A stretch of 64,000 nt of DNA, from sequence record NZ_CP090789.1; one strand, written 5' to 3'. Source of the stretch: a plasmid. Below the pieces are notes generated by a model. The model worked only from the letters and a program-made list of their open reading frames with translations, was not told the origin of the DNA and ran no database searches. The first letter of the stretch is position 1. Each line of letters starts with the position of its first letter. The translations under genes were made by a program, and so were the position numbers. Below are positions 10,788-38,129 of this stretch, one piece after another.

Positions 10788-11105
10788 CGCCGCCTGCGCG
10801 ACGAGTGCAGCGCGGATACCCGCGATAGACCCTGTGCTTGCCGCGGGCGAGGGGAGACCCTCCCTCCTGCAAGCCGGGGTTTTGTTGCTCGACCAGGTGT
10901 CGCGCGCGCCGCGCGCCCGGATCGAGGCGCACGGGTGCCCCGCGCCCGCGTAGGCGGGCGCAAGGGAGAGCGCCGGCCCGCCGCAACGCGGCGGGACGAT
11001 CCGGCTCAGCCTTCGATTATCGGCATGGGGTAGTCAAGCGGCCGTGAGGCCGCGTGTTTCCTCCGCGGCGAAGCCGTGGGGGCTGGATATGGGATGGACT
11101 GAAAA

Positions 11106-11381
11106 ATGACGCAAGATCTACGGGCCACTGTGCGGCCCGAATGTTTGCAACCGGCGCGACTGTGGATGGAACCGACGGCGGGTGAAATCCGCCTGGTGCT
11201 CGATCGCTGCGGATTCACGCGACGAAACGCAAGCATTTTCCTCGGCATCGAAGAGACCGGCCGAAGCGTGGGCCGCTGGCTCAGCGGGGAGCACTCGATT
11301 CCCTATTCGGCCTGGGCGCTGCTTTGCGCCCGGGCCGGTCTCGGAAACATATGGGAAGAGGGCGGCACCGACGCGTCGTAG
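11106..11381 (+). CDS. Small helix-turn-helix DNA-binding protein (XRE/Cro-like)
   Basis: 91 aa. The segment IRLVLDRCGFTRRNASIFLGIEETGRSVGRWLSGEHSIPYSAWALL looks like an HTH. Confidence 0.45.
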   Translation: MTQDLRATVRPECLQPARLWMEPTAGEIRLVLDRCGFTRRNASIFLGIEETGRSVGRWLSGEHSIPYSAWALLCARAGLGNIWEEGGTDAS

Positions 11382-11741
11382 CGTCGGCTCCGCCCGCGGC
11401 TTCTATACCTTCATGTTCGCGTGAGAGGGTTTGTTTTCGATCGCGCCGGCGCCGATCAGGTCACCGGCCTGGTCGGCGCCGGCGCGATCGAATTACGAGG
11501 ACGGTGATGCCGGCCTTCAAACGCGGCCGCGGAACATTTGGCCGGCGCGGAAGGCTGCACGCATCGCGTGTTCGATATCGGAAATGCGAACCTCCTCCGG
11601 CGTGTACTCCGGAATTTCGCGGTCAATGATCGGATGGCCAAAGGTTGATTCGGCGATTGCGTTCAACACAGCGTCAACAAGGTAGCGTTCCATGGTATGT
11701 CCAGTTCGGTGGCCCGCGGCGCTTGGCGCCGCAGGCAGTTT

Positions 11742-12386
11742 TTAGGCAGCGATGGCGAGGCGGTCGATCTCTAGCCGGTCGCAAGCAGCGGCGTAGTAGG
11801 TCGGATCGAGCTCGATGCCGATGTAGTAGCGGCCGAGCTCGCGCGCGGCAACGCATGTCGAGCCCGACCCAGCGAACGGATCAAGGACGACGTCGCCAGG
11901 GGCCGTGTACGTCTCGATGAGTCGCTTGAGGCACGGAACCGGCTTCTGCGTGGGATGGTGCCGATTGCCGGAATATTCCCAGCGCATCACGTCAGGCAGC
12001 GGCGTAGCCGGCACAGCCGGCTGGCCCTTCGCGAGCACGTACGCGGATTCGTGGCGGTACGCGACAAAGCGCGATTTCGACGCATAGGACTTCGCGAAAA
12101 CGATGTGGCCGACGACGCGCAGGCCCGCGCGCTTCCACGCGTCGAAAAAGCGGTCCGTTTTCGTCCAGCCGTAGAAGCTCACGCAAAGCGTGTTCGGCTT
12201 CATGACGCGGTACACCTCCGCGAATGCCGGCGCCAGCCAGTCCGATTTCACATCGTTTGCGATCGAGCGCCCGGAGCGATCGTGATAGTTGACGAGATAG
12301 GGCGGGTCAGTCAGGACGAAGTCGACCACGCCGTCCGGAATGGACGGCAACACTTCCAGGCAGTCGCCGTTATAGAGAAAGCTCAT
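11742..12386 (-). CDS. Orphan beta-class DNA methyltransferase (N6-adenine or N4-cytosine type)
   Basis: 214 aa. The DPPY catalytic motif (motif IV) precedes the FAGSGST SAM-binding motif (motif I), the beta-class order. No restriction endonuclease partner is visible nearby. Confidence 0.85.
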   Translation of the reverse strand: MSFLYNGDCLEVLPSIPDGVVDFVLTDPPYLVNYHDRSGRSIANDVKSDWLAPAFAEVYRVMKPNTLCVSFYGWTKTDRFFDAWKRAGLRVVGHIVFAKSYASKSRFVAYRHESAYVLAKGQPAVPATPLPDVMRWEYSGNRHHPTQKPVPCLKRLIETYTAPGDVVLDPFAGSGSTCVAARELGRYYIGIELDPTYYAAACDRLEIDRLAIAA

Positions 12387-12807
12387 GTATGCGCTCCACA
12401 GTTGGGGGGCGGATAGCGCGTTTCCGTGTGCGGCTCCGAAATGTCGCTACCCGGCGCTTGCGAGCGCCGCGCAGGGGTTGCCGGTCAAGGGACCGTGGAA
12501 TAACGGGGAGGCAGTCCGTAGGAGGGCACCGTTTATGCCGCGAAAGCCCTTGAAAGAGTGGGCGCGCGCCGGAGCGTGCGGGCCCGTTCTGGCCGGCGAA
12601 ACCAGCGCGGCGATCGTTTGCGACGGGTAGCGACATCCATTTAGAACCCCGGGCGCTTTATCTCCTTTCGGGCGTGGTTAGAGCCACTAGCCGAGGCCTG
12701 GAGGGGGAGGTTCGGCGTGCGGTTACTCATGAGGGCGGGCCTCGGTTTATGGGCCGCCCGATCTGGAGTGCGCCGCGCGCCCGGAAGGGGATAGGCTGCG
12801 GGCTGTG

Positions 12808-12826
12808 ACCATCGTCGATGCTCAGG
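12808..12826 (-). terminator. GC hairpin GCCCCGGC-atg-GCCGGGGC immediately downstream of the 12858 stop; candidate intrinsic terminator with a weak U-tract
   Basis: Seen directly: perfect 8-bp stem with a 3-nt loop, about 30 nt after the stop of the fused methyltransferase gene. Confidence 0.35.
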
Positions 12827-12857
12827 AACAGGCCCCGGCATGGCCGGGGCTTCGAAA

Positions 12858-14831
12858 TTACGCCGTCAGGATCATCAGCGCGGTATTGACGGAGCTTGCA
12901 GACTCGGCGAACGTATCGGCCGGCAGGTCCACCCACTCTCCACCGTGGGCCGCCACGAGACGCTGAAGCGCTTCACGCCGGCGCGGACCATTCGCGCAGA
13001 CCGCCACGAGTCGGCCACCTGGCTTGAGCATCTCGAGCGCATGCCGAATATGCCGAATGTCATCGCCGTGCGAGAACGGTGGGTTCATGACGATCCGGTC
13101 GAATGGTGTCGGCGCCACGTACGTGAGGAAATCCGTGTTGATCACGTCGGCGCCGGCCTCGCTGACGCGCAGGTGATCGCACAGGCGGGCGCTGATCTCG
13201 ACGGCGGTCCGCACCGCAGCGCCACCCGTCGCCTCGCGGATCGCGCGCAGGATCCGGCCGGTGCCGGCACTCGGTTCGAGAACGGTATGTCCCGGCTCGA
13301 TCGCGGCCAGCTCGACCATGCGCGCAGCGAGTGATACGGGCGTGGGGAACAGCTGCGAGGCGCTCACGACCTGCACCCCATGCTTCAGCTGCTCACGCAT
13401 TGCATTGAACTGCGCGCCGTCGTCGCCGGCGGCCGCGTGCTCAGTCGTCGAGCCGTTCGTCGGAACGGTGGTCACATCGCTCGGGCGCTCGACGGATGCG
13501 GCTGCCGTGAGATCCGGCGCGGCGAGCTCATCCGTGTTTCCAGCCGGCGAGATTGCCGGCGGGTTGACGCGTTTAACGTCGGTCAGGTAGACCGCCACCA
13601 ATGCACCGCGGTGGACCACCGAACGCACGCGGTGCCGGCCGACCGCGCTAGCGACGTCCGCTGCGCCCTTGATGTCCGGCCGATACCTGCCCGGTCGAAC
13701 GGCGCCGGCGCCGAGCTCGCGCGAACCCTTGTAGTCGCGATGCGTGGCGTCCCATTCGGCCTTGGTCATTGCGTGAAAGCCGGTACCGGGGTAGTTGCAA
13801 AGGGGCGGCAGCTTGCTTGCTGCCTTCACCGTGGCCGCCACTTCGGCGGACGGAGCGCGGTAGTCCTTGATTTCTTCGATGCCCCGTACCGGCACGAATC
13901 GCGCGTTGGTGGTCACGCTGCAGATTGCGCCGGCGGAGCGATTCACGCGCGTCACCACAAGCCACTCGCCGCGTACGAGTACCTGGCCCCCGGGCACGAT
14001 GTCGAAACCATCGGCCTTGATGCCGCCTTGTTCCGCGAGCATCGCGCGCTCGTAGTTCAGTCGGCAATCGTAATGCGCAATCCAGCGTTCCCAATGTGCG
14101 CGATTACGTCCTTCACGCTCGAGGTACTGGTCACAGGTCGCGCGGAAGTTATCGGGGTCCGCGTTGATTGCGCTCCAAAGGCCGTGCAGACTCGACGCCG
14201 AAGCCACCATGAGGGCACGCTCTGCGGTCAGCGTCGGCGATCGCAGCGCATCAGCTGCAGCCTTCAGGAGATCGAGGCTACGCGTGCACTTGCGGCGGTC
14301 GGCCTCGATGCGCTTAATCCGACGATGGCGGACGTCCGCACGCTCCTTGTATTTCGCGTGTTGCAGCGCCCCCGCTGCGCGGCGCTCCCAATATTCGTGG
14401 GTGTCCCACATCGAGACCGCTTTGCGCATGGCGTTGTCGATGCGCTCCGCATCGCGTCGCGCGCGGGCTTCGCTGTGGTGACCGACCAGGATCGGCTGAC
14501 CGAGTGGGATATGCTCGGTGATCGATGTGACGACGGCATGCGCGGCCTTCGCGTCCGCCGCGCGCCGTTCGCTATAACCATCGAATCGGTCGGCACGCTC
14601 TTCCGCGCGTTCGACGAGCGACGTGTCCTCGTCGTCGATTTCGCCGCACAGCTCGATGAGAAGATCTTCGCGGGCCGGCGTCCAGCTCGGCGCGACGAAC
14701 AGATCCTGTTTCGGCGCGAACCGGAACCCGGCATCGTGAACACGTCGATACAGGCCTTCCTCGAGGCGCGCGGTGCTGTACAGACGCAGCTTGTTGTCGT
14801 CGGGGGAATAGGTTGCCGTCAGGTGTTGCAT
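12858..14831 (-). CDS. Fusion protein: conserved plasmid-associated N-terminal domain (DUF3560-like) plus a C-terminal class I SAM-dependent methyltransferase with an NPPF motif
   Basis: 657 aa from ATG 14831, with a GGAG RBS 5 nt upstream (the ORF track extends to 14987 without an RBS). The C-terminus has motif I VLEPSAGTGRIL and motif IV NPPF, which are amino-methyltransferase signatures. The N-terminal ~400 aa match my memory of DUF3560 proteins found next to methylases on plasmids. Confidence 0.7.
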   Translation of the reverse strand: MQHLTATYSPDDNKLRLYSTARLEEGLYRRVHDAGFRFAPKQDLFVAPSWTPAREDLLIELCGEIDDEDTSLVERAEERADRFDGYSERRAADAKAAHAVVTSITEHIPLGQPILVGHHSEARARRDAERIDNAMRKAVSMWDTHEYWERRAAGALQHAKYKERADVRHRRIKRIEADRRKCTRSLDLLKAAADALRSPTLTAERALMVASASSLHGLWSAINADPDNFRATCDQYLEREGRNRAHWERWIAHYDCRLNYERAMLAEQGGIKADGFDIVPGGQVLVRGEWLVVTRVNRSAGAICSVTTNARFVPVRGIEEIKDYRAPSAEVAATVKAASKLPPLCNYPGTGFHAMTKAEWDATHRDYKGSRELGAGAVRPGRYRPDIKGAADVASAVGRHRVRSVVHRGALVAVYLTDVKRVNPPAISPAGNTDELAAPDLTAAASVERPSDVTTVPTNGSTTEHAAAGDDGAQFNAMREQLKHGVQVVSASQLFPTPVSLAARMVELAAIEPGHTVLEPSAGTGRILRAIREATGGAAVRTAVEISARLCDHLRVSEAGADVINTDFLTYVAPTPFDRIVMNPPFSHGDDIRHIRHALEMLKPGGRLVAVCANGPRRREALQRLVAAHGGEWVDLPADTFAESASSVNTALMILTA

Positions 14832-17532: not shown

Positions 17533-18098
17533 TGATGGACGGCATCACGCGTAAAGCTCTCGCGGAGTCCTGGTTCGAGCTCGCTGTTCGCAAGAATCCG
17601 TTCGAACAAGTTGAGGATACGGACGCATGCGTCGCCGACGTGCGAATTGGAATCGCACTCCAAGATCTCGGTGTCGAGCTCGGTCCACAGCGCCGCGTTG
17701 ATCTTCTGCCGCACAGTGCCTTTCGTCGTCGGCTCGTCTCGTTCCTCTTCTGGTGGGACCGGGAAACCCGCAGCCGCGAGCTCGCGACGCGCCTGGTCGT
17801 CCCATCGAGTCGGCGCTTCGGCGTCGCATCGGAATGCATACCGGATCGCGGCCTCGCATTCCGGTGTTCCTTCCTCGGTCTCAACCTTCACGGCAACCTC
17901 AAAGTAGTTGCCGAAGCCATGCGTGCAGGCCCGGACAATGAATCGTGCTCCCTGCGGTGGCTCACCCAGCGCCCGCGTAATCACTTTGATGAAGGCGCGA
18001 CACTCCGCGCGGCTGCGATCTTGATAGTTCTCGTTTCCCAGCTGAACGCACGGCTCGTTGGCCGGCGAAGGCCCACAATCAATAATCAGTTTGTACAT
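17508..18098 (-). CDS. Cys-rich hypothetical protein (196 aa), translationally linked to the downstream PAPS-reductase-like gene
   Basis: Good AGGAAG RBS before ATG 18098. Its stop overlaps or abuts the PAPS-reductase-like ORF. At least 9 cysteines. No recognised domain. Confidence 0.5.
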   Translation of the reverse strand: MYKLIIDCGPSPANEPCVQLGNENYQDRSRAECRAFIKVITRALGEPPQGARFIVRACTHGFGNYFEVAVKVETEEGTPECEAAIRYAFRCDAEAPTRWDDQARRELAAAGFPVPPEEERDEPTTKGTVRQKINAALWTELDTEILECDSNSHVGDACVRILNLFERILANSELEPGLRESFTRDAVHQCNVWYFG

Positions 18099-18139
18099 GC
18101 TCTTCCTCTCTGGCGTACCGCGCGACGCGGTGTTAGCTG

Positions 18140-18612
18140 CCCGGGCTCCAAGATTCGGAGTCCCGACGTATTGGGTTCTGTTGAGTCGGCGTGCTGCGCT
18201 TCGCAGCTGCCGCCGGTCCCCTTAGTTCGTCGTCCCGCGAACGGACCAGCGCCGGCCGGCGCCGGGTCAAGGGAACACGCGCGGGGTGGGGCGGGAGGGA
18301 GCGCAGCGCACGACACGGCCCCGCGCGCCTTGACGCGGCAAAGGCCGGCGCTACGGTCGCGGAACTAGGACGACGAGCTCAGGGGACGAGAAGGTCGGTA
18401 GCGGCCGCATGCCGATGAGGCAGAACGCCGCGCGCGGCGAGCGCGCTATCTGAGGCGCGGAGCGGCTCAGGTGGACATGGGGTGGCCAGCGCCGGGGCGG
18501 GCTGCGGAACGCAGCGCGGCCCCTAGAGCGTGGTGGGACATCCGGGCCGCGGAGAAAGCGGCTCGCGTGGCAAATCGATTACGTCGGTTTGGTGCGCGAG
18601 CCGTCGCGGTCC
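18140..18612. repeat. Copy B of the ~470-bp structured direct repeat, immediately upstream of the minus-strand Cys-rich/PAPS-reductase operon
   Basis: Seen directly. It carries the same internal long-range inverted repeat and GC palindromes as copy A. Confidence 0.8.
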
Positions 18613-18705
18613 GGCTGGATCCAGCTGCGAAAAGAAACTCGCCCCGGTTTCAGTGCCTAGCTATTTGAGTAAGCGAACCTGATCTGATAGCTTCTTACTC
18701 GAGAA

Positions 18706-19152
18706 TTGACCTTCGGCAAATACAAGGGCACGGAAGCTCGAAAACTTCTGTTCGACGATCCAGCCTACGTCCGCTGGCTTCTAGGAGAATCCGGCGCCTC
18801 GGGAGGCATGCTGGCAGCGCAGAAGGAGTTCACGCGACTCATCGCGGCACTCGATAAGAAACCGTTTGCCGGCGACTGCGCCGGCGGCTGCAAACAGCCA
18901 GCGACCAGGGCGAGTGCGTATGCAAACAGCCCGACACTCTTCTCGTGGTGCGACGATTGCGATCCGTATTCGAAGGGGGCGCTGGCGGGCAAGTTGCGCA
19001 TCGTCAGAACGTATGCGGACGCAGAGCGCCACGTCAATTTGACCGCCGAAGGCCATAGGGCCACGCTCAAAGCAATCATCCGCGAACTGGCAATGGAAAA
19101 AGGCATGGCGAAGCGGTTTACGGCATCGGCCCTTGCGGCATTCCTTCCATGA
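18706..19152 (+). CDS. DUF3820-like protein (FGKYKG motif family), TTG start
   Basis: The N-terminus MTFGKYKG..DPAYVRWLL resembles the DUF3820 domain family. 148 aa. Confidence 0.45.
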   Translation: MTFGKYKGTEARKLLFDDPAYVRWLLGESGASGGMLAAQKEFTRLIAALDKKPFAGDCAGGCKQPATRASAYANSPTLFSWCDDCDPYSKGALAGKLRIVRTYADAERHVNLTAEGHRATLKAIIRELAMEKGMAKRFTASALAAFLP

Positions 19153-19678
19153 GACAAGCATAGCGACTAAGCGCTGCTCGCCAGTTTTCTGGCGACCTGA
19201 AAACGATTGATGAATACAATTATGTAAAATTATGGATACCTAATCGATTTGAGTCCCGCCAGCGCCAATGAAATATCGATTCCGCGACACCGCATCGACC
19301 GATCGGGTATCCACCTGCGTCGACCGGCCAACGCGACCGTACTAGATTCCCGTGTCAGAGGACCGTCATGCGCCGAGCTTCAAATTGCAGCTTGCTACCG
19401 TCCGCAAACACACAGATGTCCACGCACAGTTGCGGAGCCTCTATCGCTACAGCGAGGTCACACGCGGTGTCAAATGCTCTGCACACGTCGGCGTCCATGC
19501 TGATGCACTCGGCGGTGGTGTATTGCGGTCGGTCCATCATCCTTTCCCTGTTTTCCGGTATCCGTGCGCTTTAGCGGCGGTTGTCGCCTTCGATGATCAG
19601 AAGCCTCGCGTTTTCCTTCCAAATTGCATTAACGGCCTCAGCGACTGCTTCTGACAAAATAATAGTACCGCTGCGGTA

Positions 19679-20122
19679 CTATGTCAAAGCTTTTATCAGT
19701 TGCTCAACAATCTGGGGAGCAAGCGTCACGCCGCGGGCGCTCAACTCTGCCGGTAGTACGGTGCGCATCATGTGACGGCGCACTGCCAAGGGGATACGCT
19801 CCAGTGCATAACCGGCTTCTGCCATTTTGGCGGGCCAATTATGTCGGTATGCCGTGCCGCACGCAGCATTGATCTCGTCAAGGGTTTGCTTGAGCGGTTT
19901 GCCAGCGGCCGCCTCAATTTCCAGCCAGCGCTCGAAGAGGCCTTTAGAGAGTTTATCTAGTACCATAGCGGTACTGTATACCATACGCGCCGTCAAATAG
20001 TCTCCTCGAAGATTCGGGACAGAATGGCGCGGCCCAGAAAAGCAACCATCGGATAATTCGGCGCCGCGCCGATCCGGTACCCTTCCACCGTATCGCAATA
20101 TCTCGGCGATGATCGTGCTCAC
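19679..20122 (-). CDS. Hypothetical protein in a lower-GC patch; possible remnant of a recombinase N-terminal domain
   Basis: ORF in an AT-richer segment flanked by AGTACC-N5-GGTACT palindromes. Weak resemblance to integrase core-binding/SAM-like domains. Low confidence. Confidence 0.3.
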   Translation of the reverse strand: MSTIIAEILRYGGRVPDRRGAELSDGCFSGPRHSVPNLRGDYLTARMVYSTAMVLDKLSKGLFERWLEIEAAAGKPLKQTLDEINAACGTAYRHNWPAKMAEAGYALERIPLAVRRHMMRTVLPAELSARGVTLAPQIVEQLIKALT

Positions 20123-20441
20123 TGAACTACAAAACCTACAGGCTCAACTTCGCGAATTGAATGCTCGGCTCGCGGACGTGAAGAACGACGAAAGGCAGGC
20201 GTATTTAGCCCGAGTCCAGGAACACGTTGCCCTCTACGGCATTACCGAAGATGAACTGCTCTGCGCAGCTGGCTTCCGGAAAGCGCGCAGATCGCGGGCG
20301 CAAGCGAAGTACTACGACCCCTCGTCGGGTAAGCAATGGTCTGGATTCGGCCCGCGACCGAAATGGCTGGAAGGCAAGAATCTCGACGACTACCTGATTG
20401 AGCGTGCTGCGAAACCGTGGTGGCCCGGAGAAGACGCCTGA
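20109..20441 (+). CDS. hns: H-NS family nucleoid-associated protein (plasmid-borne 'stealth' H-NS-like)
   Basis: 110 aa with an N-terminal coiled-coil and the C-terminal motif KYYDPSSGKQWSGFGPRPKWL, typical of H-NS/Bv3F DNA-binding domains. An AT-rich upstream region precedes it. Confidence 0.75.
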   Translation: MIVLTELQNLQAQLRELNARLADVKNDERQAYLARVQEHVALYGITEDELLCAAGFRKARRSRAQAKYYDPSSGKQWSGFGPRPKWLEGKNLDDYLIERAAKPWWPGEDA

Positions 20442-20571
20442 CGACGCGCGCAAGTGAATTTCGCACCGATAGAGTGCTCCACGGTCGGGGCTTACCTGAC
20501 GACAGCGATCGCCACCGGCAACCCGATACTTGCGTTACCCTGTTTCGGTACGGTTGCCCTGGGAGTCGGCG

Positions 20572-21483
20572 ATGTGCTATTCGGCAAAGATCCAAACCAA
20601 CTATCGTGAGTACGCGCGACGTTACGGTGCCGACATGGACATCGAGACATTCCGCCATCTGTTCTTCGCGCGCGCGGCCGGAAGCGACATCAGAATTCCG
20701 AAGGCGGTCGACGCGGCGCTCGTAGGTGTCGACGAAGAAATCTCGGCGGCGATCGCTGCGTATCGAAGCCAGCGAACACGGAAGCTGGAGACCGATCTGT
20801 TCGAGCAGCGAGCGCGCCTCGCCGCGGCCGAGAAGAAGCTCGCCGTGAAGACCACGAAGAAGGCGACCGAGGACGTCCGGATCGCCACGGACAAGATCGA
20901 TGCGGCAACGCGCGGGCTCGACGATCTTCGCCGGCAGGACCTGCAGGAGCGTGATTCGCGGATCTTCCCCGGCTGGTATGCGCCCGTGCTGATCGAGCTC
21001 GAAGGCAAACGCCTAGTCGTGCCGATGCGGTATCGGTGCCGCATACCGGGCTGGACCGAGGCGGACGAAAAACAGAAGCCGGCAACCTATAATGCCCGCT
21101 CGGATTCGCTCGCCACGGCCTGGCGCAAGGTCTTCGGCTTCACGCATGGGCTCCTGCTCGTCGACGCTTTCTTCGAAAACGTGCGGCGCGACGGCCAGAA
21201 CGTCGTGCTTCGCTTCGACCCGACGCCCCCGCAACACATGCAAGTCGCCTGCCTGTGGACCCGCACCGAGATCCCTGGCGCCGACGATTTGTGGTCGTTC
21301 GCGGCGATTACCGACGACCCACCGCCGGAAGTGGCGGCAGCGGGCCACGACCGATGTATCGTCCCCATTAAATCCTCGAATGTTGACGCGTGGCTCGCAC
21401 CACATCCAAGCCGGCGCGCGCAGCTGCGCGAGATCCTGGCCGACCGCGAGCGGCCCTACTACGAGCACCAGCTCGCAGCGTAA
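20572..21483 (+). CDS. SOS response-associated peptidase (SRAP/YedK family) with a ~100-aa coiled-coil insertion
   Basis: Start MCYSAK (the catalytic Cys2 after the initiator Met is the SRAP hallmark) with a GGAG RBS. Conserved NARSDSL...LVDAFFE and FPGWYAP motifs align to YedK. An insertion lies between the N-terminus and the core. Confidence 0.6.
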   Translation: MCYSAKIQTNYREYARRYGADMDIETFRHLFFARAAGSDIRIPKAVDAALVGVDEEISAAIAAYRSQRTRKLETDLFEQRARLAAAEKKLAVKTTKKATEDVRIATDKIDAATRGLDDLRRQDLQERDSRIFPGWYAPVLIELEGKRLVVPMRYRCRIPGWTEADEKQKPATYNARSDSLATAWRKVFGFTHGLLLVDAFFENVRRDGQNVVLRFDPTPPQHMQVACLWTRTEIPGADDLWSFAAITDDPPPEVAAAGHDRCIVPIKSSNVDAWLAPHPSRRAQLREILADRERPYYEHQLAA

Positions 21484-21518
21484 ACGCGGGGGTTGGTGGG
21501 GCGGTTATCTCTGTCATA

Positions 21519-21538
21519 TACTGTACAAACATACAGTA
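21519..21538. promoter_or_regulatory. LexA (SOS) box TACTGTACAAACATACAGTA (CTGT-N8-ACAG) upstream of imuA
   Basis: Seen directly, between the SRAP stop (21483) and the imuA start (21557). It matches the E. coli/Betaproteobacteria LexA operator consensus. Confidence 0.7.
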
Positions 21539-21556
21539 TTTTGCGTAACCGACCCC

Positions 21557-22273
21557 ATGCACCCCGCCCTCGCCCATCCTGAAGTCATCCACCCGGCCCT
21601 CTGGCGCGCCAGTCAGCTGGCGCGCTCGAGCGTGCGCGGCGTCGACACGGGCCATCCGGAACTGACGGCCGAACTGCCCGGCGGCGGCTGGCCGGCCGGC
21701 GCGCTGATCGAGCTGCTCGCGCCGCAGCCGGGCATCGGCGAGCTTCGGCTGCTGGCGCCGGTGCTCGCGCGCGCGGCCGGCAAGCCGGTCGTGCTGATCC
21801 AGCCGCCGCATGCACTGCAACCGCTGGCGCTCGCGTACTGGGGCATCGACCCGTCCGGGTTCGTGACGCTGCCGGCGCCGCGAACGGCCGACGCGCTGTG
21901 GGCCGCCGAACAGGCGCTGCGTGCCAGCACGTGCGCTGCCGTGCTGCTCTGGCAGCCGCATGTCCGTGCGGACGCATTGCGGCGACTCAACCTGGCCGCG
22001 CAGAGCGGCCAGGCGCTGTTCTACCTCTTCCGGCCGGCGGCCGCCGCGCGCGATGCGTCGCCGGCGCCGCTGCGGCTCGCGCTGGCGCCGAAGCGTGACG
22101 GCATCGATGTCACGTTCGTGAAGCGCCGCGGGCCTGCACGCGATGCGCCGCTGTTCGTTCCCTTGTCACCCTCGCCGATTTTGTTGAACCGCCATGCAAG
22201 TCTGGATCGGCGTGCATCTGCCGCACCTCAACCTCGAAGTGTTCCGGCCGCGATCGCCGGCGCCGTCGCCTGA
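21557..22273 (+). CDS. imuA: ImuA (SulA/RecA-fold translesion-synthesis accessory protein)
   Basis: Motifs ALWRASQLAR...LPGGGWPAGALIELL are typical of ImuA. It is the first gene of the cassette downstream of the LexA box and overlaps the imuB start. The ORF-track start at 21092 is an out-of-frame-like extension into the SRAP gene. Confidence 0.7.
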   Translation: MHPALAHPEVIHPALWRASQLARSSVRGVDTGHPELTAELPGGGWPAGALIELLAPQPGIGELRLLAPVLARAAGKPVVLIQPPHALQPLALAYWGIDPSGFVTLPAPRTADALWAAEQALRASTCAAVLLWQPHVRADALRRLNLAAQSGQALFYLFRPAAAARDASPAPLRLALAPKRDGIDVTFVKRRGPARDAPLFVPLSPSPILLNRHASLDRRASAAPQPRSVPAAIAGAVA

Positions 22274-23672
22274 CGATGCGCGCGGGCTCGTCGTGCTCGA
22301 GGGCGGCCGCGTCGTGGCGCTCGATCGCGCCGCGCGTGCGCTCGGCGTGGTCGCCGGCATGCGCCGCGGTGGCGTGCTCTCTCTCGCACCGGACGCGCAG
22401 ATCCGCGAGCGTGACGCCGCGCGCGAGCGCGAGCTCGTGCTCGGGGTTGCTTATGCGCTCCTGCAGTTCACACCGAGCGTCGTCGACGCCGAGGAAGCCG
22501 TGGTTGTGCTCGACGTGACCGCGAGCCTGCGCCTGTTCCACGGCATCCGCGCGCTGCGCCAGCGTGTGCGCGATGTCGTCGCGTCGTTCGGCGTCACCGC
22601 GGCGATATCCGTCGCGTCCTCGGGTCCGGCCGCGTGGATGGTCGCCCGCGGCCTGCGCGGCGGCCTCGCGCTGTCCGCGCGATCGCTGCGCCGCGCGCTC
22701 GCGCGCGTGCCTCTCGTCGTTGCGCCGGACGCCCGGCGCTACGCGAACTGGTTCGAGGATCTCGGCTGCGAAACGCTCGCCGATCTGCAGCGCTTGCCGC
22801 GCGCCGGGTTGAAGAAGCGATGCGGCACGCAACTGCTCGACTGGCTCGACCAGGTCGCCGGCACCGCGCCGGCCGCCTACGACTGGCTCGAAATGCCGCC
22901 GTCGTTTGACACGCGCGTCGAACTGATGGACCGCGTCGAGCACGCCGAGGCGCTGCTGTTCGTCGCGCGCCGGCTGATCCTGCAGCTGACCGGCTGGCTC
23001 ACCGCTAAGCAGCTGGACGTCGCCGCGTTTGCACTCCTGCTCGAGCACGAGCGCGGGCGGGACGCGATCGCGCCGACCGAGATCGAAATCGCGTTGGGCG
23101 CCCCTACCCGCTTCGAGGAGCACCTCACCCGGCTCGTCAAGGAGCGGCTCGGCCACGTCGAGCTCGCCGGGCCCGTGATTGCCGTGCGCCTAGTCGCCCA
23201 CAGCGTGCAGGAAGCTGCCGCGCCGAGCGACTCCCTGTTTCCCGAGCCCGGTGGCACGCCGCAGGATCACGCACGGCTGCTGGAACTGCTGACGGCGCGG
23301 CTCGGCTCCGAGAACGTACTCGTCGCAGCTCCCATGGCCGACTACCGTCCCGAGCCGGCCGCCCGATGGGTGCCGATGCGTGACGCGCCGAAGCCGTCGC
23401 CGCTGCCGTCGGACCTGCCGCGTCCGGCCTGGCTGCTTGGCAGGCCTGTGCCGTTGCTCACACGCGAGCATCGCCCGTTTTACGGCACGCCGCTGCGCAT
23501 GGTGTCGCCTGGCGAGCGCATTGAAGGTGGCTGGCAGGATGGGCAGACCGTGACGCGCGACTACTTCGTCGCCGAGGACGACAACGGCATCTGCTACTGG
23601 ATCTACAAGGAGCGGCCGACGGCCAGCGACGAAAGCGACGCGCGCTTCTTCCTGCACGGCCTGTTCGGCTGA
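22194..23672 (+). CDS. imuB: ImuB (inactive Y-family polymerase-like protein)
   Basis: The N-terminus MQVWIGVHLPHLNLEVF resembles ImuB. 492 aa. It sits directly upstream of dnaE2. Confidence 0.8.
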   Translation: MQVWIGVHLPHLNLEVFRPRSPAPSPDDARGLVVLEGGRVVALDRAARALGVVAGMRRGGVLSLAPDAQIRERDAARERELVLGVAYALLQFTPSVVDAEEAVVVLDVTASLRLFHGIRALRQRVRDVVASFGVTAAISVASSGPAAWMVARGLRGGLALSARSLRRALARVPLVVAPDARRYANWFEDLGCETLADLQRLPRAGLKKRCGTQLLDWLDQVAGTAPAAYDWLEMPPSFDTRVELMDRVEHAEALLFVARRLILQLTGWLTAKQLDVAAFALLLEHERGRDAIAPTEIEIALGAPTRFEEHLTRLVKERLGHVELAGPVIAVRLVAHSVQEAAAPSDSLFPEPGGTPQDHARLLELLTARLGSENVLVAAPMADYRPEPAARWVPMRDAPKPSPLPSDLPRPAWLLGRPVPLLTREHRPFYGTPLRMVSPGERIEGGWQDGQTVTRDYFVAEDDNGICYWIYKERPTASDESDARFFLHGLFG

Positions 23673-23678
23673 TCCGGC

Positions 23679-26600
23679 ATGGACGCCGGCAGCTTCGGCG
23701 CCCTGCCCGCGTACGCGGAACTTCAGGTCGCCTCCGATTTTTCGTTCCTGCAGGGCGCGTCACGCGCGGAGGAATACGTCGCGCGCGCGGCGCAGCTCGG
23801 CTACAGCGCGATCGCGATCACCGACGAGTGCTCGCTCGCCGGCGTCGTGCGCGCGCACGTCGAAGCGAAGGCAGCGAACATGCCGCTGATCGTCGGCTCG
23901 CACTTCCGGCTGACGGCCGCGGACGGCGCGCCCGCGCTCGCCTTCACTGCGCTGGCGATGAATCGCGACGGTTACGGCAACCTCTGCGAATTCATTTCGC
24001 TCGGTCGCATGCGCGGCAAGAAAGGCACGTACCGGCTGGCGCCACTCGATCTCGAACACCCGGAAGCGCCGTACACGCACCTGCGCGGCCTGCCCGACTG
24101 CGTCGCGATCCTGTCGCCCGACTTCCCAGCCAACGAGCAACGCCTTGACGCGCAGGTCGAATGGTTCGCGCGCGTGTTCGGCAATCGCGCATGGGTCGCG
24201 CTGACGCTGCACGCACGCGCGATGGACGACATCCACCGCGGCGTGGTCGAGCGCGTCGCCGCGCGGCACGGCGTGCCCGTGGTGGCCACCAGCTGGCCCC
24301 TCATGCACGTGCGATCGCGCAAACCGCTGCAGGACGTGCTGACGGGGATCCGGGTCGGCCGGCCGGTATCGGAGTGCGGGTACGAGCTCGCGCCGAACGC
24401 GGAGCGTCACCTGCGGTCGCGTCTGCGGCTCGCCAACCTCTATCCCGCCGGCGCGCTCGAGGAAACCGTACGCGTCGCGCGGCGTTGCACGTTTTCGCTC
24501 GACGACCTGAAGTACGAGTATCCGGATGAACTGGTACCGGCCGGCACCGATCCGGCGACGTACCTGCGCGAGCAGACCTACATCGGCGCGCGCCGGCGCT
24601 TTCCGGCCGGCATCCCGATCGACGTCCAGGCGCAGATCGAACACGAGCTGCAGCTGATCGCCGACCTGAAATACGAGGCGTATTTCCTGACCGTCTACGA
24701 CATCGTGCAATTTGCGCGCGAGCAAGGCATCTTGTGCCAGGGACGCGGCTCGGCTGCGAACTCGTCCGTTTGCTACTGCCTCGGCGTGACCGAGGTCGAC
24801 CCGTCGCGGCAATCGATGCTGTTCGAACGGTTCATCAGCAAGGAGCGCAACGAGCCGCCGGACATCGACGTCGATTTCGAGCATCAGCGTCGCGAAGAGG
24901 TCATGCAGTACATCTACCGCAAGTACGGCCGCGATCGCGCAGCGCTCACGGCCGCCGTCACGACATACCGGCCACGCAGCGCACTACGCGAAGCCGGCAA
25001 GGCGCTCGGCGTGGATCCGGCGATCGTCGATCGCGTCGCGAAGCAGCACCACTGGTTCGATTCGCGCGCGGATCTGCTGCAGCGTTTTTCCGAGGCTGGC
25101 CTCGACCCCGACGCGCCGCTGAATCAGCAGTGGGCCGCATTTGCCGCGCAGCTGCTCGGCTATCCACGGCACCTGTCGCAGCATTCGGGCGGCTTCGTGA
25201 TCAGCCGCGGCAAGCTCACGCGGCTCGTACCGGTTGAAAACGCAGCGATGGAGGATCGCTCGATCATCCAGTGGGACAAGGACGACATCGAGGCGCTCGG
25301 GATTCTGAAGATCGACGTCCTGGCCCTCGGGATGCTGTCGATGGTACGCCGCGCGCTCGACATGATCTCGGAGAAACGCGGCGAGACATTCGAGCTGCAG
25401 GACATTCCAGCCGAGGACAAGGCGACCTACGACATGCTGTGCGATGGCGACAGCATGGGCGTGTTCCAGGTGGAATCGCGCGCGCAGATGTCGATGCTGC
25501 CGCGCCTGCGGCCGCAGTGCTTCTACGACTTGGTGATCGAAGTCGCGATCGTGCGGCCGGGCCCGGTGCAAGGCGGGATGGTGCATCCGTTTCTGCGCCG
25601 GCGCCAGGGGCTGGAGCCCGTCACGTTTCCGTCGGAAGGCATGGAGAAGGCGCTGGCTCGCACGCTCGGCGTGCCGATCTTCCAGGAGCAGGTGATGCAG
25701 GTCGCGATGCTGGCGGCCGGCTTCTCCGCCGGCGAGGCCGACCAGCTGCGCCGCGCGATGGCGGCATGGAAGCGCAAGGGGGGCCTCGAGCCGTACCACG
25801 AACGCCTGGTGAGCGGCATGCTCGAGCGCGGCTACGATCGCGAGTTCGCGGAATCCATCTTCGCGCAGATCAAGGGCTTCGGCGAGTACGGCTTTCCGGA
25901 GAGCCACGCGGCCAGCTTCGCGCTGCTCGTCTACGCGAGCGCCTGGCTGCGCCGACACGAGCCGGCCGTGTTCCTGGCCGCGCTGCTCAACAGCCAGCCG
26001 ATGGGCTTTTACACGCCGTCGCAGCTCCTGCAGGACGCGCGGCGTCGCGGCGTTGAGGTGCTGCCCGTCGACGTCAACGTGAGCACATGGGATTCGGCGA
26101 TCGAAGGCCCGACAACGTCGGCGCCCGTGCGTCTCGGCTTCTCGCTATTGCGCGGCATGCGCGAGGACGTCGCCGGCCGCATCGAGCTCGCACGCGCTGC
26201 GCGGTCATTCGTCGACGTCGCGGATCTCGCGCGCCGCGCGCGGCTTGATCGGCACGACCTGCAGGTGCTCGCGCGCGCGAACGCCCTCCGCTCACTCGCC
26301 GGCGGCAATCGACGCGCCGCGCTCTGGCTGGCCGCCGCCGCGGTCCCCGATCGGGATCTGCTGCGCGGCACCGAGCGCGACGACGCGGTGCCGGCACTGC
26401 CGCAAGCATCGGAAGGCGCGGAAATCGTGACGGACTATCGTTCGATGGGCTTCACGCTCGGCCGGCATCCGCTGGCGCTGCTGCGCGAACGCCTGGCGCT
26501 CGATCGCCTGCAGTCGGCCGAACAGCTGCAGACGTTGCGCAGTGGCCAGCTCGCGCGCGCGTGCGGACTGGTTACGGTACGGCAGCGGCCGGGCACGGCG

Positions 26601-26828
26601 AACGGCGTACTGTTCATGACGCTCGAGGACGAGACCGGCCAGGTGAATGTGATCCTCTGGCCCGGCCTGCTGGAAAAGTTTCGGAAGGAAGCGCTCGGCG
26701 CCGCGCTGCTTGCCGTCTATGGTGTATGGCAGGCCGAAGGGAAGGTGCGGCATCTGATTGCGAGCAAGCTCGTCGACAGAACTGAACTACTCGGTGCACT
26801 GCCGACGACGTCGAGGGAGTTTTGTTAA
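23679..26828 (+). CDS. dnaE2: Error-prone DNA polymerase DnaE2 (ImuC)
   Basis: 1049 aa. It has the N-terminal PHP motif [17 protein letters not shown], polymerase III alpha core motifs and an OB-fold C-terminus. It is the third gene of the imuA-imuB-dnaE2 cassette. Confidence 0.9.
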
Positions 26829-27403
26829 ATTTGCGCCGGCGCGGCGGAGGCCCGAATTGCTGCCAGTTCTTCGTCACCAAGCGCGGGGAGTTCAACGGCC
26901 GTCACGATCTCTGGGAGAGCAGCCATGATCGCTGTCCATTCGTTCACCGCGCTTTCGTGATATGCCCTCCTTTGCTCATGGCCATTGCCCTCGTTCGTCG
27001 CTTCCGCGATGCAATGTGCGCGCACCTCGGCGTGACCGATCGCTTGCCATACTGCCTGGCGCGCTCCTAGGGCGAGATAGAGGCAGTAATCGTCCATCCA
27101 TGCCTTGCAATCATCGATCACAGATTGATTGTCGCGAGCCGACAGAAGCCCCTTTACCTTCTTGAATGCTTGTTGATGTGCATCCATGCGCTTGTCTGCA
27201 ACAAGCGTCCGAAGCGAATGACGCTGTTTGGATACCTCAATTATTTCGGCAAATTGATGTTTGATTTCCTCCTGCCGTCTGGTGATCTCGGCAATGTCCT
27301 CCTTTGTCGCCAGATTTTCCCCCTTCTTACGGAAGTATCCTGGCAGAAATTCCTGTGCGAGCAGAATGATCCCTGCACCAGCGAGCACCCCAATCAAGCT
27401 CAT
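26825..27403 (-). CDS. Hypothetical membrane-anchored protein (192 aa) in a lower-GC segment
   Basis: N-terminal transmembrane helix and a coiled-coil body. No recognised family. Confidence 0.4.
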   Translation of the reverse strand: MSLIGVLAGAGIILLAQEFLPGYFRKKGENLATKEDIAEITRRQEEIKHQFAEIIEVSKQRHSLRTLVADKRMDAHQQAFKKVKGLLSARDNQSVIDDCKAWMDDYCLYLALGARQAVWQAIGHAEVRAHCIAEATNEGNGHEQRRAYHESAVNEWTAIMAALPEIVTAVELPALGDEELAAIRASAAPAQI

Positions 27404-27418
27404 TGTCTTTCCTCGAGT

Positions 27419-28513
27419 TTAAAGACGTTGATCGTCAAGCGTTGATTCGGACGTGAGGCGCGGCATCTTCAACAACTTCGCCTTGTAGCTAAACACGTCG
27501 CTCTCATCGATGTCGAATCGGCGCAGCCAATCATCGCTTTCGGCAGTCGTATCAAAGTATGGTGCGGCGGCCCCCATCAATCCGCGCTGCAAGCGCCACA
27601 CAGTCTTCGCTCGAATAGCCTTCAACGCATTGTTGAGGACCACGTAGTTCGCAGGTGCGACGGGCGGCCCCTTCCCTGACTCATCGGCTGCGCCACCGGG
27701 CTCGGGTTCGGGGCCGGCCTGAATCACGACCCCACCGTTCATGTCGTACAGCGCGAACCAGTCCGGCGGCAGTTCGCTTCGTAGCGCTGCGATCCCGCCC
27801 GCCTGCTCCAACAGCGACTTGTCCAGGCACGTGAGCCAAGAAACCGTTTTCAGTTTCGATCGCAGGTGCGTCGCGTTGAGCAGCGGATTGCCGACGTCGA
27901 GCGCCAGGTAGCGCCGGGCCAACCAGTATTCCGTCGGTGTGTTGGCCTCAGCTTCCGTCAGGCTCAGATTCACCGCGAATCCGGCATAGCCGTTGTAGGC
28001 GTTCAGCCGTTTCGCGAAGTCGACGAACAGCTGCTGGAACGCGCGAGGATGGGCGACCAGAAATGGCACAGGCACCGAGAAGGTCAGTGCGCTGGCGCCC
28101 CCTTCGGCCATCGCTTCCTCGTACTCCAGGATCCCGAACACGCGGAACTCCCACAGCCCTGCATCCTCAGCCTTTTCGCCGGAGGACAGGTAGGCCGTAA
28201 CGCCCGCGTCGCCGCGCGCGCGGAACGCCTTCGGGTCCACCTGCCCATCCTTCAGCTGCACGGGCATCCGGCCGTCCTGCGTGAGCCAGCGAAGGCGCGG
28301 TCCCGCGTAGGCCGCATACGCCGCGAAGCAGTTTGCAATCTCGCCCTGCACGGCTTCCTGATACGCGTTCGGAAAGAACAGCGCCGCGCGCACGACCATC
28401 GCTGCGCCGACGTAGTCGTGACGCTGCTTCGGCAGAAGCATGCCCCCTTTCAATAGGGCGTCAGTTTGGGCATTCTTCGCCCACTCGATCAGTGCTTGTT
28501 CGTCCATGGTCAT
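27419..28513 (-). CDS. Putative immunity protein for the upstream nuclease effector
   Basis: 364 aa from ATG 28513. This start overlaps the effector stop by 1 nt (the ORF track extends it to 28630). Its position directly after a PAAR-effector pair is the canonical immunity-gene slot. No family recognised. Confidence 0.5.
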   Translation of the reverse strand: MTMDEQALIEWAKNAQTDALLKGGMLLPKQRHDYVGAAMVVRAALFFPNAYQEAVQGEIANCFAAYAAYAGPRLRWLTQDGRMPVQLKDGQVDPKAFRARGDAGVTAYLSSGEKAEDAGLWEFRVFGILEYEEAMAEGGASALTFSVPVPFLVAHPRAFQQLFVDFAKRLNAYNGYAGFAVNLSLTEAEANTPTEYWLARRYLALDVGNPLLNATHLRSKLKTVSWLTCLDKSLLEQAGGIAALRSELPPDWFALYDMNGGVVIQAGPEPEPGGAADESGKGPPVAPANYVVLNNALKAIRAKTVWRLQRGLMGAAAPYFDTTAESDDWLRRFDIDESDVFSYKAKLLKMPRLTSESTLDDQRL

Positions 28514-29277
28514 CAGAATAGCGGAATCGGGCTCGGCGATGGGGCAGGCGCAGCTCCGTCGGGCGGCCGTGGGCCGAAGACGCTGCGTGAACGTTTCGTC
28601 GCGCCCTCGAGCTCGTCGAACGGGCTCCACGGGGCCGGCTTCGACGCGCCGTCTGTGGCATCTCTCGGCGCGGGCCCGAGTACCGGAAATTCGCTGGTCT
28701 TCTCCTGCTTTTTCCCGTCGTCGTCAGGGCACCCGCAATCCTCCGGCGTCAAAAGGACGGCAGCTGCATTGGGGCCGGCGATAAGTTCGTCTTGCCTTTG
28801 ATGCCGCGTTGAATACGAATCGCCCTTGAACTTCATTTCGACGACGGCGTCCAGATTGTCCTGGGTCGGCTCCTTCGCCGGATCCTTGACGATCACCACA
28901 TCGGGGATCCGCACGTTGCCGACGCCGCGCTCGTACTTTCCGACCCAGTTGTCCTCGATCCATTGAGGGAGCCAACCGTGCGTCTTGTTCGGCGTGCGCG
29001 GGCTCATGATCGGTGTGGGTGGACGAACCGTCATGAGGTACTTCACCTCGGGTTTGTAGATGCTGGTCTTAAAGTCCGGGTCGTCCTGCTTGAGCTTTGA
29101 GGCGACGCAGATCTGTCGAAGATCTTTGCCGTCCACCGACTGCGGCGGATTGTTCTTGCACGAGCACATCAGGCTGCACAGCTTCGCCTGATCTTTGGGC
29201 CGCAGCTTCGAAGTCAGGTAGACCCGACTGGTTTCGCCGTCGCCGGGCGCCGTTCCTCCGATCGACCACTTGCTCAC
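28513..29277 (-). CDS. PD-(D/E)xK-type nuclease-like toxin/effector following PAAR
   Basis: GTG start 29277 overlaps the PAAR stop as GTGA. The core IPDVVIVKD...DAVVEMKF fits a PD-(D/E)xK D...E.K nuclease motif. The C-terminus is Pro/Ala-rich. Confidence 0.5.
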   Translation of the reverse strand: MSKWSIGGTAPGDGETSRVYLTSKLRPKDQAKLCSLMCSCKNNPPQSVDGKDLRQICVASKLKQDDPDFKTSIYKPEVKYLMTVRPPTPIMSPRTPNKTHGWLPQWIEDNWVGKYERGVGNVRIPDVVIVKDPAKEPTQDNLDAVVEMKFKGDSYSTRHQRQDELIAGPNAAAVLLTPEDCGCPDDDGKKQEKTSEFPVLGPAPRDATDGASKPAPWSPFDELEGATKRSRSVFGPRPPDGAAPAPSPSPIPLF

Positions 29278-29804
29278 GCTTCGGCACTCCCGTCGCCGTG
29301 AAACGTAATCGACGCGGGCTCGGCAGACTCGTGCCACTGCGTGAAGCCTTGGGCGTCGGTCTGGCCGGAGATCATGGAGCCATCCGGCGCCTGGAACGAG
29401 TACGGGTGGTTGGGAACGGGGCTTCCCGTTTCGCTATTCAGGACTTGGAACCGGCCGCGGTACCTATCGGTCGCGCTCGGATCCTGTTGCGGGACAACGT
29501 TCTTTCCGCCGCCAATGCCGCCCGCAGCACCGGACACCTGCTCGACATGCGCAGAGCCTTGCGATGCGATCAGCGAGGCGCCGCACGCCGTCTTGTCCCC
29601 TTCGGTCGCCACCGGGCGGCCGCCGAAGGTCATGCTTCTCACCTTCACGTCGACGATCGGATAGACGCCACCGCATTTCGGACATGCCACCATGTCGCCG
29701 AGTAGTGCGACGGGTTTGCCGAACATCATGTTCGTTGATGTGCAGGCGAGTACACGTCCACCATGCGACGTCGTATCGCCTTCGCGAATAAACGCGTAGG
29801 TCAT
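29274..29804 (-). CDS. PAAR-domain protein (T6SS spike tip)
   Basis: 176 aa from ATG 29804 with a GAGG RBS. The motif TSHGGRV...ACPKCGG...DGD is typical of PAAR repeats with conserved Cys/His. No other T6SS core genes are present in the window. Confidence 0.8.
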   Translation of the reverse strand: MTYAFIREGDTTSHGGRVLACTSTNMMFGKPVALLGDMVACPKCGGVYPIVDVKVRSMTFGGRPVATEGDKTACGASLIASQGSAHVEQVSGAAGGIGGGKNVVPQQDPSATDRYRGRFQVLNSETGSPVPNHPYSFQAPDGSMISGQTDAQGFTQWHESAEPASITFHGDGSAEA

Positions 29805-30273
29805 AGCCAGCCCTCGGATTGTTATGTCGGACGAATTTAGCACCAATTCGCTACCGCACATCACCCTCGCCGGCTCGATCAACCGTCAAAGTTTGTTAGC
29901 TGCGCTCGAAAATTCGGTGCGGCGTCAAAACAATGAGAGCTGGCGTGGGTCGCGCTCTGGCACCGCCGGCGGACGCGTACCGCCCCCAACTTTGCGCATA
30001 CGCACGATCAGCGGCACGACTTTGTTGCTCACCGTGAGGGTGACCTCGAATGCAGTCAAATTTGGCGTATCGAACGTCGGCATCCGCTTCCAGATCGGTC
30101 GCCATTCTAGTTTTCGCATACGCGAGTGCAGCTGCTCCTTGCTCGGTCCCGGGACAGATGCCGCGACGAATTGCGCGAGCGGCGCTGGTACCCGCTCGGG
30201 AGGAAACGACTCCGGAAGTCCGAATGAAACAAGTTCAAGCGTCGCTGCCACGGTGCTCTCTCCCGATCGAAAG

Positions 30274-37983: not shown

Positions 37984-38129
37984 GGTGGTGTGGTCTCCTG
38001 CAGGTTGATCAGTAGATTCGGCTGTTCAGTTGAACAGCGTCGATAGCGTACTAAGCAAGACGGCCAGGGCCGTCAGGCCGGCGGCGATCATGTTCAAGGT
38101 CGCCAGCCCTTGCGACCGGGACGGCGAGC

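Follow-up and report, generated by a model that had tools for sequence, protein, structure and literature searches.

A long-form SRAP gene beside a LexA box and imuA-imuB-dnaE2 on a Burkholderia plasmid: gene content, subfamily and relation to known systems

Gene content and operator of the plasmid locus

The 64-kb stretch of a Burkholderia conjugative plasmid analysed here (sequence record NZ_CP090789.1; referred to throughout as the window) carries on its + strand genes for an H-NS-like protein (20109-20441, 110 amino acids) and a long-form SRAP protein (20572-21483, 303 amino acids), followed by a LexA-type operator (21519-21538) and the genes imuA (21557-22273), imuB (22194-23672) and dnaE2, also termed imuC (23679-26828). 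Its plasmid nature is apparent from genes for a Rep3 initiator, ParA, a MOBQ relaxase, a TraD-like protein, a type IV pilus and a type IV secretion system. The block very probably represents a plasmid copy of the translesion mutasome operon for ImuA, ImuB and DnaE2 that LexA represses, its operator being directly preceded by an accessory SRAP gene. As a cassette it is ordinary, i.e. one more copy of a known and annotated plasmid mutagenesis operon, and in itself adds little; the more useful outcome concerns the SRAP protein, which belongs to a subfamily with two experimentally tractable features, its helical arm with a conserved basic tip and its ssrA-like tail.

All of the gene models score above their cut-offs, in agreement with an earlier note on this DNA, made from the letters alone, which had described a plasmid-borne cassette comprising a LexA box and imuA-imuB-dnaE2 with a SRAP gene just upstream. 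ImuA (238 residues, a RecA/SulA-like accessory protein) scores 225 bits against the equivalog model NF033429 (cut-off 150), and ImuB (492 residues, Y-family polymerase-like) scores 39.8 bits against Pfam IMS (cut-off 23.2). The H-NS-like protein, the gene for which ends 130 nt before that for the SRAP protein, scores 38.7 bits against Pfam Histone_HNS, and the SRAP protein 63.4 bits against Pfam PF02586 (cut-off 27.1). Matches of ImuB to DinB models are weak and far under the cut-offs of those models, and the ImuB N terminus reads IGVHLPHL where active DinB has acidic residues. DnaE2 (1049 residues, an error-prone Pol III alpha-type polymerase) scores 1519 bits against the 'error-prone DNA polymerase' model NF004225 (cut-off 939), in a match spanning residues 9-1048, and 611 bits against the replicative alpha model NF004226, which is under the 1002 cut-off of the latter; it carries the full set of PHP, alpha NTPase, finger, HhH and OB domains. 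Direct reading of the open reading frame coordinates gives an overlap of 80 nt between imuA and imuB and a gap of 6 nt between imuB and dnaE2, so that the values noted previously, the overlap as an approximation, prove exact. The imuA-imuB overlap is annotated alike in RefSeq plasmid records.

The operator, TACTGTACAAACATACAGTA, contains the core CTGTACAAACATACAG (21521-21536), which has the form CTGT-N8-ACAG. Of the 20 positions of the full site, 17 agree with the E. coli-type consensus, and 100 shuffles gave no match; the CTGT-N8-ACAG pattern occurs twice in the 64 kb, a count that 9 of 100 shuffles reach. A position-specific scoring matrix built from 21 distinct boxes that precede imuA or SRAP genes in other genera gives the site at 21519 a score of 32.8 bits (training sites, 21.9-37.5), with 4.4 bits for the runner-up in the window and a maximum of 14.2 in 20 shuffles, although the independent evidence in this score is limited to the flanks and the spacer, because the training boxes were chosen by the CTGT-N8-ACAG pattern. 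The box proposed upstream of imuA is therefore present and is the sole strong LexA-type site in the 64 kb; its distance from the gene needs a small correction, since the core ends 20 nt, rather than 19 nt, before the ATG at 21557. In most of the imu-linked related loci of other genera a box lies ~8-27 nt ahead of imuA, and this positional conservation is the strongest argument for an operator function. A candidate -10 hexamer, TATACT (21517-21522), recognised by eye, overlaps the left arm of the box.

The second CTGT-N8-ACAG occurrence, CTGTTCAGTTGAACAG (38022-38037), was considered as an SOS box and rejected, its score of 4.4 bits lying under the shuffle maxima; in view of that low LexA matrix score it is probably an operator for some other regulator. 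It stands 39 nt upstream of an open reading frame of 135 residues (37576-37983, - strand), which heads a run of genes including those for an Abi_C-domain protein and a DUF3701 tyrosine recombinase.

The long-form SRAP protein and its subfamily

The SRAP gene starts with ATG TGC TAT TCG GCA AAG (MCYSAK) at 20572, preceded by a GGGAG Shine-Dalgarno sequence 6 nt upstream, and has its Cys2 codon at 20575-20577. A TTG start at 20530, which would give a longer protein, is unsupported because 37 of 40 diverse homologues begin M-C. Cys2, on which the assignment as a catalytically competent SRAP protein by the earlier note turned, is retained after this check of the start codon and is present in 38 of the 40 homologues, which are of 29-55% identity. 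Some database entries (P0043, P0049-P0051 and P0056) give the SRAP protein as 253-264 residues, or 87% of the query; these evidently begin at an internal methionine, with loss of the catalytic Cys2, which likely reflects systematic misannotation of the start site.

Compared with SRAP proteins of solved structure, the sequence similarity of the window protein is very low. The Pfam match covers residues 120-292 only (profile positions 24-197), no NCBIfam family was matched, and a search of solved structures with the single sequence returned 1zn6 alone (E=0.019); a profile search reaches HMCES at 1e-8. Alignment with E. coli YedK by hhalign (probability 90%; the YedK query sequence was compared with PDB chains) pairs N174, E202 and H259, in NAR, FE and HDR motifs, with N75, E105 and H160 of YedK, for which catalytic roles are documented (PMC9436759). 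Conservation in the 40-sequence alignment (A1) is at least 90% at M1, C2, S4, A5, R130, P138, A175/R176, E202 and G258-H259-x-R261, and in a second alignment (A2), made of nine closer homologues, N174 does not vary.

An AlphaFold2 model computed from the alignment (pLDDT 95.9, pTM 0.91) has a strand at residues 2-7 and, after the helices described below, the SRAP beta core. Foldseek matches this core to 1zn6, 2f20 and the YedK-DNA cross-link structures 6nua and 6kbz (E 3e-11 to 5e-9, and up to 1e-9 for 1zn6, 2f20 and 6nua; probability 1.00), with TM values of ~0.63-0.69, normalised to the target. A library of viral structures gave no significant match (best E=0.057), so a phage origin for the long SRAP protein is unsupported. 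On the basis of the conserved residues and the model, the window SRAP protein is predicted to be an abasic-site DNA-protein cross-linking protein; the cross-linking chemistry has been established biochemically for the SRAP fold (PMC9436759).

Relative to YedK, the protein has an insertion at residues 8-129 (20593-20958, + strand), which adds a net 93 residues by hhalign, because residue 130 of the window protein aligns to YedK residue 37. The insertion follows strand 1 of the fold. In the AlphaFold2 model the insertion comprises short helices at residues 11-18, 24-35 and 44-50, followed by a helical hairpin at residues 55-120 (20734-20931, + strand), which DSSP resolves into helices of 38 and 25 residues (55-92 and 96-120) packed antiparallel. 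The hairpin tip is the best-conserved part of the insertion, with the pattern R82-L-x2-A-E-x2-L-x2-K-x-T-K-x-A-x4-R-I-A; from the per-column conservation its residues are R82-L83, A86-E87, L90, K93, T95-K96, A98 and R103-I104-A105. The arm matches only generic antiparallel coiled coils in Foldseek, e.g. the arm of seryl-tRNA synthetase and GreB. It may be a docking or DNA-contacting element.

The insertion of about 100 residues between the N terminus and the core that had been called unusual is hence real and predicted to be helical, but it is not unusual, since it is shared by, and defines, a large subfamily. A search of 5.8 billion proteins gave 4,767 hits, with full-length forms of 302-310 residues from Burkholderia, Paraburkholderia, Pandoraea, Rhodanobacter and Variovorax. 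Among 50%-identity representatives, 1,526 clusters match at E<=1e-3, of which 153 do so at E<=1e-30, with many representatives aligning over residues 1-303 at 32-55% identity. All 40 members of alignment A1 carry the insertion, and a 33%-identical homologue comes from a Bdellovibrionota genome bin. With a nine-sequence alignment of closer homologues, 80 genome loci with a long SRAP gene were found in Burkholderiales and Xanthomonadales-type genomes. Most long SRAP proteins have, in addition, a second insertion of ~16 residues (...HDLEGREL..GE..) after the catalytic Glu (A1 columns 270-285, at window residues ~206-207), which is absent from the window protein and from a minority of homologues; HMCES has extra residues at the same position.

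The C terminus of the window protein, ...YEHQLAA, ends in Leu-Ala-Ala (21472-21480, + strand), and this type of ending is kept across the subfamily. A hydrophobic-Ala-Ala end is found in 75 of the 76 full-length genes at the genome loci (L008-L087), i.e. 54 with LAA, 15 with MAA, 4 with IAA and 2 others, and an Ala-Ala end in 34 of the 65 full-length, more divergent representatives of the 50%-identity clusters. The ssrA tag (...YALAA) and the C terminus of the SOS protein RecN are signals for ClpXP, and by analogy the Leu-Ala-Ala tail may be a ClpXP-type degron.

No published description of such a subfamily was found in the searchable literature; the searches returned only the 2013 and 2026 SRAP surveys, which, in the terms searched, contain neither the insertion nor a coiled coil. 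From sequences and model, the long SRAP proteins form a widespread, apparently undescribed subfamily, typified by an MCYSA start, a confidently predicted helical hairpin with a conserved Lys-rich tip and a hydrophobic-Ala-Ala end.

Linkage, regulation and alternative readings

At 44 of the 80 long-SRAP loci, imu genes are located within 10 kb. In 19 of these 44, imuA-imuB-dnaE2-SRAP share a strand, and the SRAP gene, which begins 30-121 nt past dnaE2 (in a single locus 618 nt), would be co-transcribed from the LexA promoter. The remaining imu-linked loci have the SRAP gene after imuA alone (2), divergent (13), convergent (5) or upstream as in the window (3), or have dnaE2 only (2). Conservation of the linkage, while the gene order is not conserved, argues for a functional link between the SRAP protein and ImuABC. 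Five SRAP genes without imuA nearby have an upstream box of their own, in four cases at 55-63 nt and in one at 233 nt. Two plasmids, those of P. caffeinilytica (L004) and P. phymatum (pBPHY02, L007), are arranged in other ways: in one, the order is imuA-imuB-dnaE2-SRAP and 50 nt separate dnaE2 from the SRAP gene, and in the other imuA is directly followed by the long SRAP gene, imuB and dnaE2 being missing and ligD located a few kb away.

The window differs from the 19 loci in the position of the SRAP gene with respect to the operator. In the window the SRAP gene does not evidently belong to the SOS-controlled unit: the operator stands between the SRAP gene and imuA, and neither a relaxed CTG-N10-CAG scan of 18000-27500 nor the matrix scan of the whole window found a LexA site ahead of the SRAP or H-NS-like genes. 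Because the operator is downstream of it and it has no LexA site of its own, the SRAP gene here is probably outside SOS control and probably shares its expression with the H-NS-like gene.

In the reading that we prefer, the host LexA would bind the single SOS box at 21519-21538, overlapping the likely -10 element of imuA, and would be released upon DNA damage, or upon activation of RecA by incoming conjugative single-stranded DNA after complementary-strand synthesis, whereupon the three translationally coupled genes would be expressed. DnaE2 would then carry out error-prone bypass, with ImuB as an inactive Y-family adaptor and ImuA as a RecA-like accessory factor. The SRAP protein, probably made in the window arrangement with the H-NS-like protein and independently of SOS, would, after removal of Met1, form a thiazolidine cross-link via Cys2 to abasic sites in single-stranded DNA, as for YedK and HMCES, and so shield these sites from cleavage and mutagenic bypass. 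Its rigid antiparallel helical arm, with a basic tip, may dock or contact DNA, and the LAA tail, if acting as a ClpXP-type degron, could limit the lifetime of the protein or help to clear the cross-link. The gene identities, the strength and conservation of the box, the retention of the catalytic residues, the fold and a genomic linkage that recurs are shown by the analysis, and LexA control in the host, the cross-linking activity, the roles of arm and tail and the direction of transfer are inferred.

Several observations weigh against this reading or parts of it. Imu neighbours are absent from 36 of the 80 long-SRAP loci and from both of the distant homologues examined (L089 and L090), so the long SRAP protein can do without the mutasome. 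Plasmids of B. glumae carry an unrelated SRAP gene of short form (MCTNF..., 244 residues), divergent from the same unit of box and imuABC; as it fills the equivalent place, the hairpin is not required for the association. A consensus promoter scan of 19900-21700 called no sigma-70 promoter, so that the assignment of the imuA promoter is a reading of the sequence only, and a scan of the same interval found no terminator between the SRAP gene and imuA, making read-through possible. Finally, the proposal of a degron derives solely from the likeness of the tail to the ssrA and RecN C termini.

The position of the block relative to a likely origin of transfer (oriT) bears on a further interpretation. 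The predicted oriT (7152-7184, + strand) is RSF1010-like and consists of an inverted repeat of 11+11 bases followed by GCGTAAGCGCG; it adjoins a gene for a MobA/MobL relaxase-helicase of the MOBQ type (4299-7121, - strand) and lies between the relaxase and traD-like genes. The repeat, GTTTCTATGCT/AGCATAGAAAC (7152-7173), is perfect, giving the 22-bp palindrome GTTTCTATGCTAGCATAGAAAC, and 8 of the 11 bases of GCGTAAGCGCG are those of the nic-proximal sequence of RSF1010, with identical repeat ends and a GTAAG-GCG motif. The RSF1010 substrate is CAGTTTCTCGAAGAGAAACCGGTAAGTGCG/CCCT; it is nicked on the 3' side of the repeat, and it is the DNA downstream of the nick to which the relaxase is tethered (PMC4814116). 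The substrate sequence was found in 121 IncQ-type plasmids. By analogy, the + strand is predicted to be nicked near 7184/7185, with higher coordinates entering the recipient first, which would place the H-NS/SRAP/imu block 13-20 kb into the leading side. Other genes on that side encode ParB-like, antirestriction-like, DNA methyltransferase, DUF3560-methyltransferase and PAPS-reductase proteins; orientation within this island is mixed, the antirestriction-like and DUF3717 open reading frames being on the + strand. The earlier suggestion that the cassette may lie in the first-transferred region is in keeping with the predicted oriT, but the imu block is on the + strand, i.e. the predicted transferred strand, and would not be transcribable from the incoming single strand.

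It might be proposed that the SRAP and H-NS-like genes are an independent module for establishment after transfer, merely located beside the imu operon on cepacia-complex plasmids, with the SRAP protein protecting abasic sites on the incoming strand and the H-NS-like protein silencing plasmid genes. The proposal accords with the surroundings of the block, which shares the predicted leading region with genes of the ParB-like, antirestriction and methyltransferase types, with the lack, in the scans described above, of a LexA box upstream of either gene, and with the occurrence of H-NS and SRAP genes together on a B. vietnamiensis plasmid that is without imuABC at that site. Differences in G+C content at third codon positions (GC3), which is 0.63 for the H-NS-like gene, 0.78 for the SRAP gene and 0.85-0.87 for imuB and dnaE2, point the same way. 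We nevertheless regard it as unlikely: both genes are on the predicted transferred strand, from which they could not be transcribed as it enters in single-stranded form, and the long SRAP gene is elsewhere mostly chromosomal and, in other genera, imuABC-linked, so its adjacency to the imu genes is unlikely to be accidental.

It might also be proposed that the long SRAP protein serves the ImuABC mutasome as its dedicated fourth subunit, or as a gatekeeper, with its arm docking on ImuB, DnaE2, the beta clamp or RecA, with the cross-link marking abasic sites or handing them over for bypass by DnaE2, and with ClpXP removing it via the LAA end. Recurrence of the imuABC linkage in four gene orders, the 19 loci in which co-transcription from the LexA promoter is expected, the conservation of the hairpin tip above the rest of the insertion, the near-universal hydrophobic-Ala-Ala end and the reported restraint of mutagenic translesion synthesis by HMCES (PMC9436759) would all fit. 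That the window SRAP gene is outside the LexA-controlled unit, that imu genes are missing from the vicinity at 36 of the 80 loci and beside the distant homologues, and that a short SRAP protein substitutes on the B. glumae plasmids argue to the contrary, and we consider such a subunit role quite improbable.

A closely related and similarly speculative idea, to which we give only slight credence, is that the long SRAP protein is a purpose-built partner of ImuABC, which would cross-link abasic single-stranded DNA, use its arm, with the conserved K-x-T-K tip, for contact with ImuB, DnaE2, the beta clamp or the DNA junction, and be cleared by ClpXP via its tail; on the window plasmid it would be constitutive and so in place before the SOS response turns on the polymerase. 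Were this so, a single protein would couple the shielding of lesions to the choice of polymerase and to clearance of the cross-link, giving a bacterial answer to the resolution of SRAP-DNA cross-links. No bacterial studies of the removal of such cross-links, or of communication between SRAP proteins and translesion polymerases, were found in the searchable literature. With a candidate degron, a candidate docking arm and genetic linkage to imuABC in roughly half of the sampled genomes, the long-SRAP family is a good system in which to test both.

Catalytic divergence, such that the protein would be a peptidase, an autoproteolytic switch (the original proposal of 2013; PMC3765255) or a scaffold rather than a cross-linker, is very improbable: it could be argued from the Y-S-A at residues 3-5 in place of the usual G-R-F/Y (MCYSA versus MCGRF), from an N terminus left unaligned by Pfam and from a closest solved structure found by sequence at E=0.019 only, but Cys2 and the Asn, Glu and His residues are conserved and align with the catalytic residues of YedK, the predicted strand 2-7 and core fold match the YedK cross-link structures, and the cross-linking chemistry was established for the fold after the proposal was made (PMC9436759).

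The interval 20001-28000 is 65-68% G+C, and the replication and transfer backbone (from ~40 kb) is 56-60% G+C with GC3 values of 0.61-0.79, mostly <0.72. As the GC3 of imuB and dnaE2 and the regional G+C content exceed those of the backbone, the contrast suggests a chromosome-like source for the cassette. Immediately after dnaE2, at 27419-29882 on the - strand, is a type VI secretion-style toxin/immunity set, comprising genes for a PAAR-domain protein (29274-29882, - strand), a VRR-NUC-like nuclease (28513-29337, - strand; a weak match) and a TsiV 'immunity for VRR-NUC' protein (27419-28630, - strand; 225 bits).

Comparison with known systems

The block from the SRAP gene through dnaE2 is present on many plasmids of the Burkholderia cepacia complex, with 85-92% nucleotide identity over at least 89% of 20000-27000 by megablast. 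It is found on dozens of plasmids in RefSeq, including NC_011003.1 of B. cenocepacia J2315, NZ_CP126319.1 of B. anthina and a B. pseudomallei plasmid, where its products are labelled SOS response-associated peptidase family protein, ImuA, DNA polymerase Y family protein and error-prone DNA polymerase. An H-NS family protein precedes the block in RefSeq where the match reaches furthest upstream and so takes in the H-NS gene too, e.g. in NZ_CP126319.1; the match to the J2315 plasmid begins just upstream of the SRAP gene. Plasmids of the J2315 type differ from the window by a local insertion, a group II intron between the SRAP gene and the LexA box, and otherwise by sequence differences only. In the J2315-type plasmid of B. 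cenocepacia NCTC13227 (L008) the intron (ltrA) is at 10909-12901 and separates the SRAP gene from the box and imuA by ~2 kb; several plasmids bear the intron, and the LexA box stays beside imuA.

With respect to the SRAP protein, the likeness to YedK and HMCES extends to Cys2, the Asn/Glu/His residues, the beta-rich core and the genomic association with translesion polymerase operons (PMC3765255), whereas the start is MCYSA and not MCGRF/Y, a net 93-residue helical insertion follows strand 1 and the C terminus is hydrophobic-Ala-Ala. The association of SRAP genes with imuB/dnaE2 operons had been taken as known, correctly so, since Aravind et al. described SRAP in ImuA-ImuB-DnaE2 neighbourhoods in 2013 (PMC3765255).

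The closest characterised counterpart of the operon is imuA2B2C2 of the Cupriavidus taiwanensis plasmid pRalta, which lies behind a CTGT-N8-ACAG SOS box, is LexA-dependent by experiment and, once the plasmid has been transferred, causes a transient phase of hypermutagenesis (Remigi et al. 2014; PMC4151985). In the same work the pRalta genes group phylogenetically with Burkholderia cassettes, and imuBC were found on many plasmids (PMC4151985). The pRalta copy has expression and mutagenesis results, whereas the window copy is known from its sequence. The two share the genes, their order, the overlapping or abutting frames, the CTGT-N8-ACAG box before imuA and location on a large plasmid. They differ in that H-NS-like and long SRAP genes precede the operator in the window and in that its carrier is a MOBQ/Rep3 conjugative plasmid rather than a symbiotic megaplasmid. 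The presence of mutagenesis genes on a conjugative element, which had been thought notable, hence has precedents (PMC4151985, PMC11541004), and the block is already annotated in RefSeq; given these annotations, PMC4151985 and PMC3765255, none of the three headline points of the earlier note is new as a category.

Enterobacterial plasmids provide a parallel for the location of the operon. Operons of the umuDC type border leading-region anti-defence islands in plasmids (Samuel & Burstein 2024, PMC11541004), and 90.3% of umu homologues are oriented against transcription from the transferred strand (PMC11541004). The window has in common with these plasmids a LexA-type translesion operon that marks the far limit of a group of ParB-like, antirestriction and DNA methyltransferase genes and that, with the predicted direction of transfer, would likewise not be transcribable from the transferred strand; it differs in being betaproteobacterial, in encoding ImuABC, with the C-family polymerase DnaE2, instead of Pol V (UmuD'2C), and in that its leading region is a predicted one. 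If that prediction holds, the placement seen in the window would extend to Burkholderia and to ImuABC the occurrence of translesion operons at the edge of plasmid leading regions.

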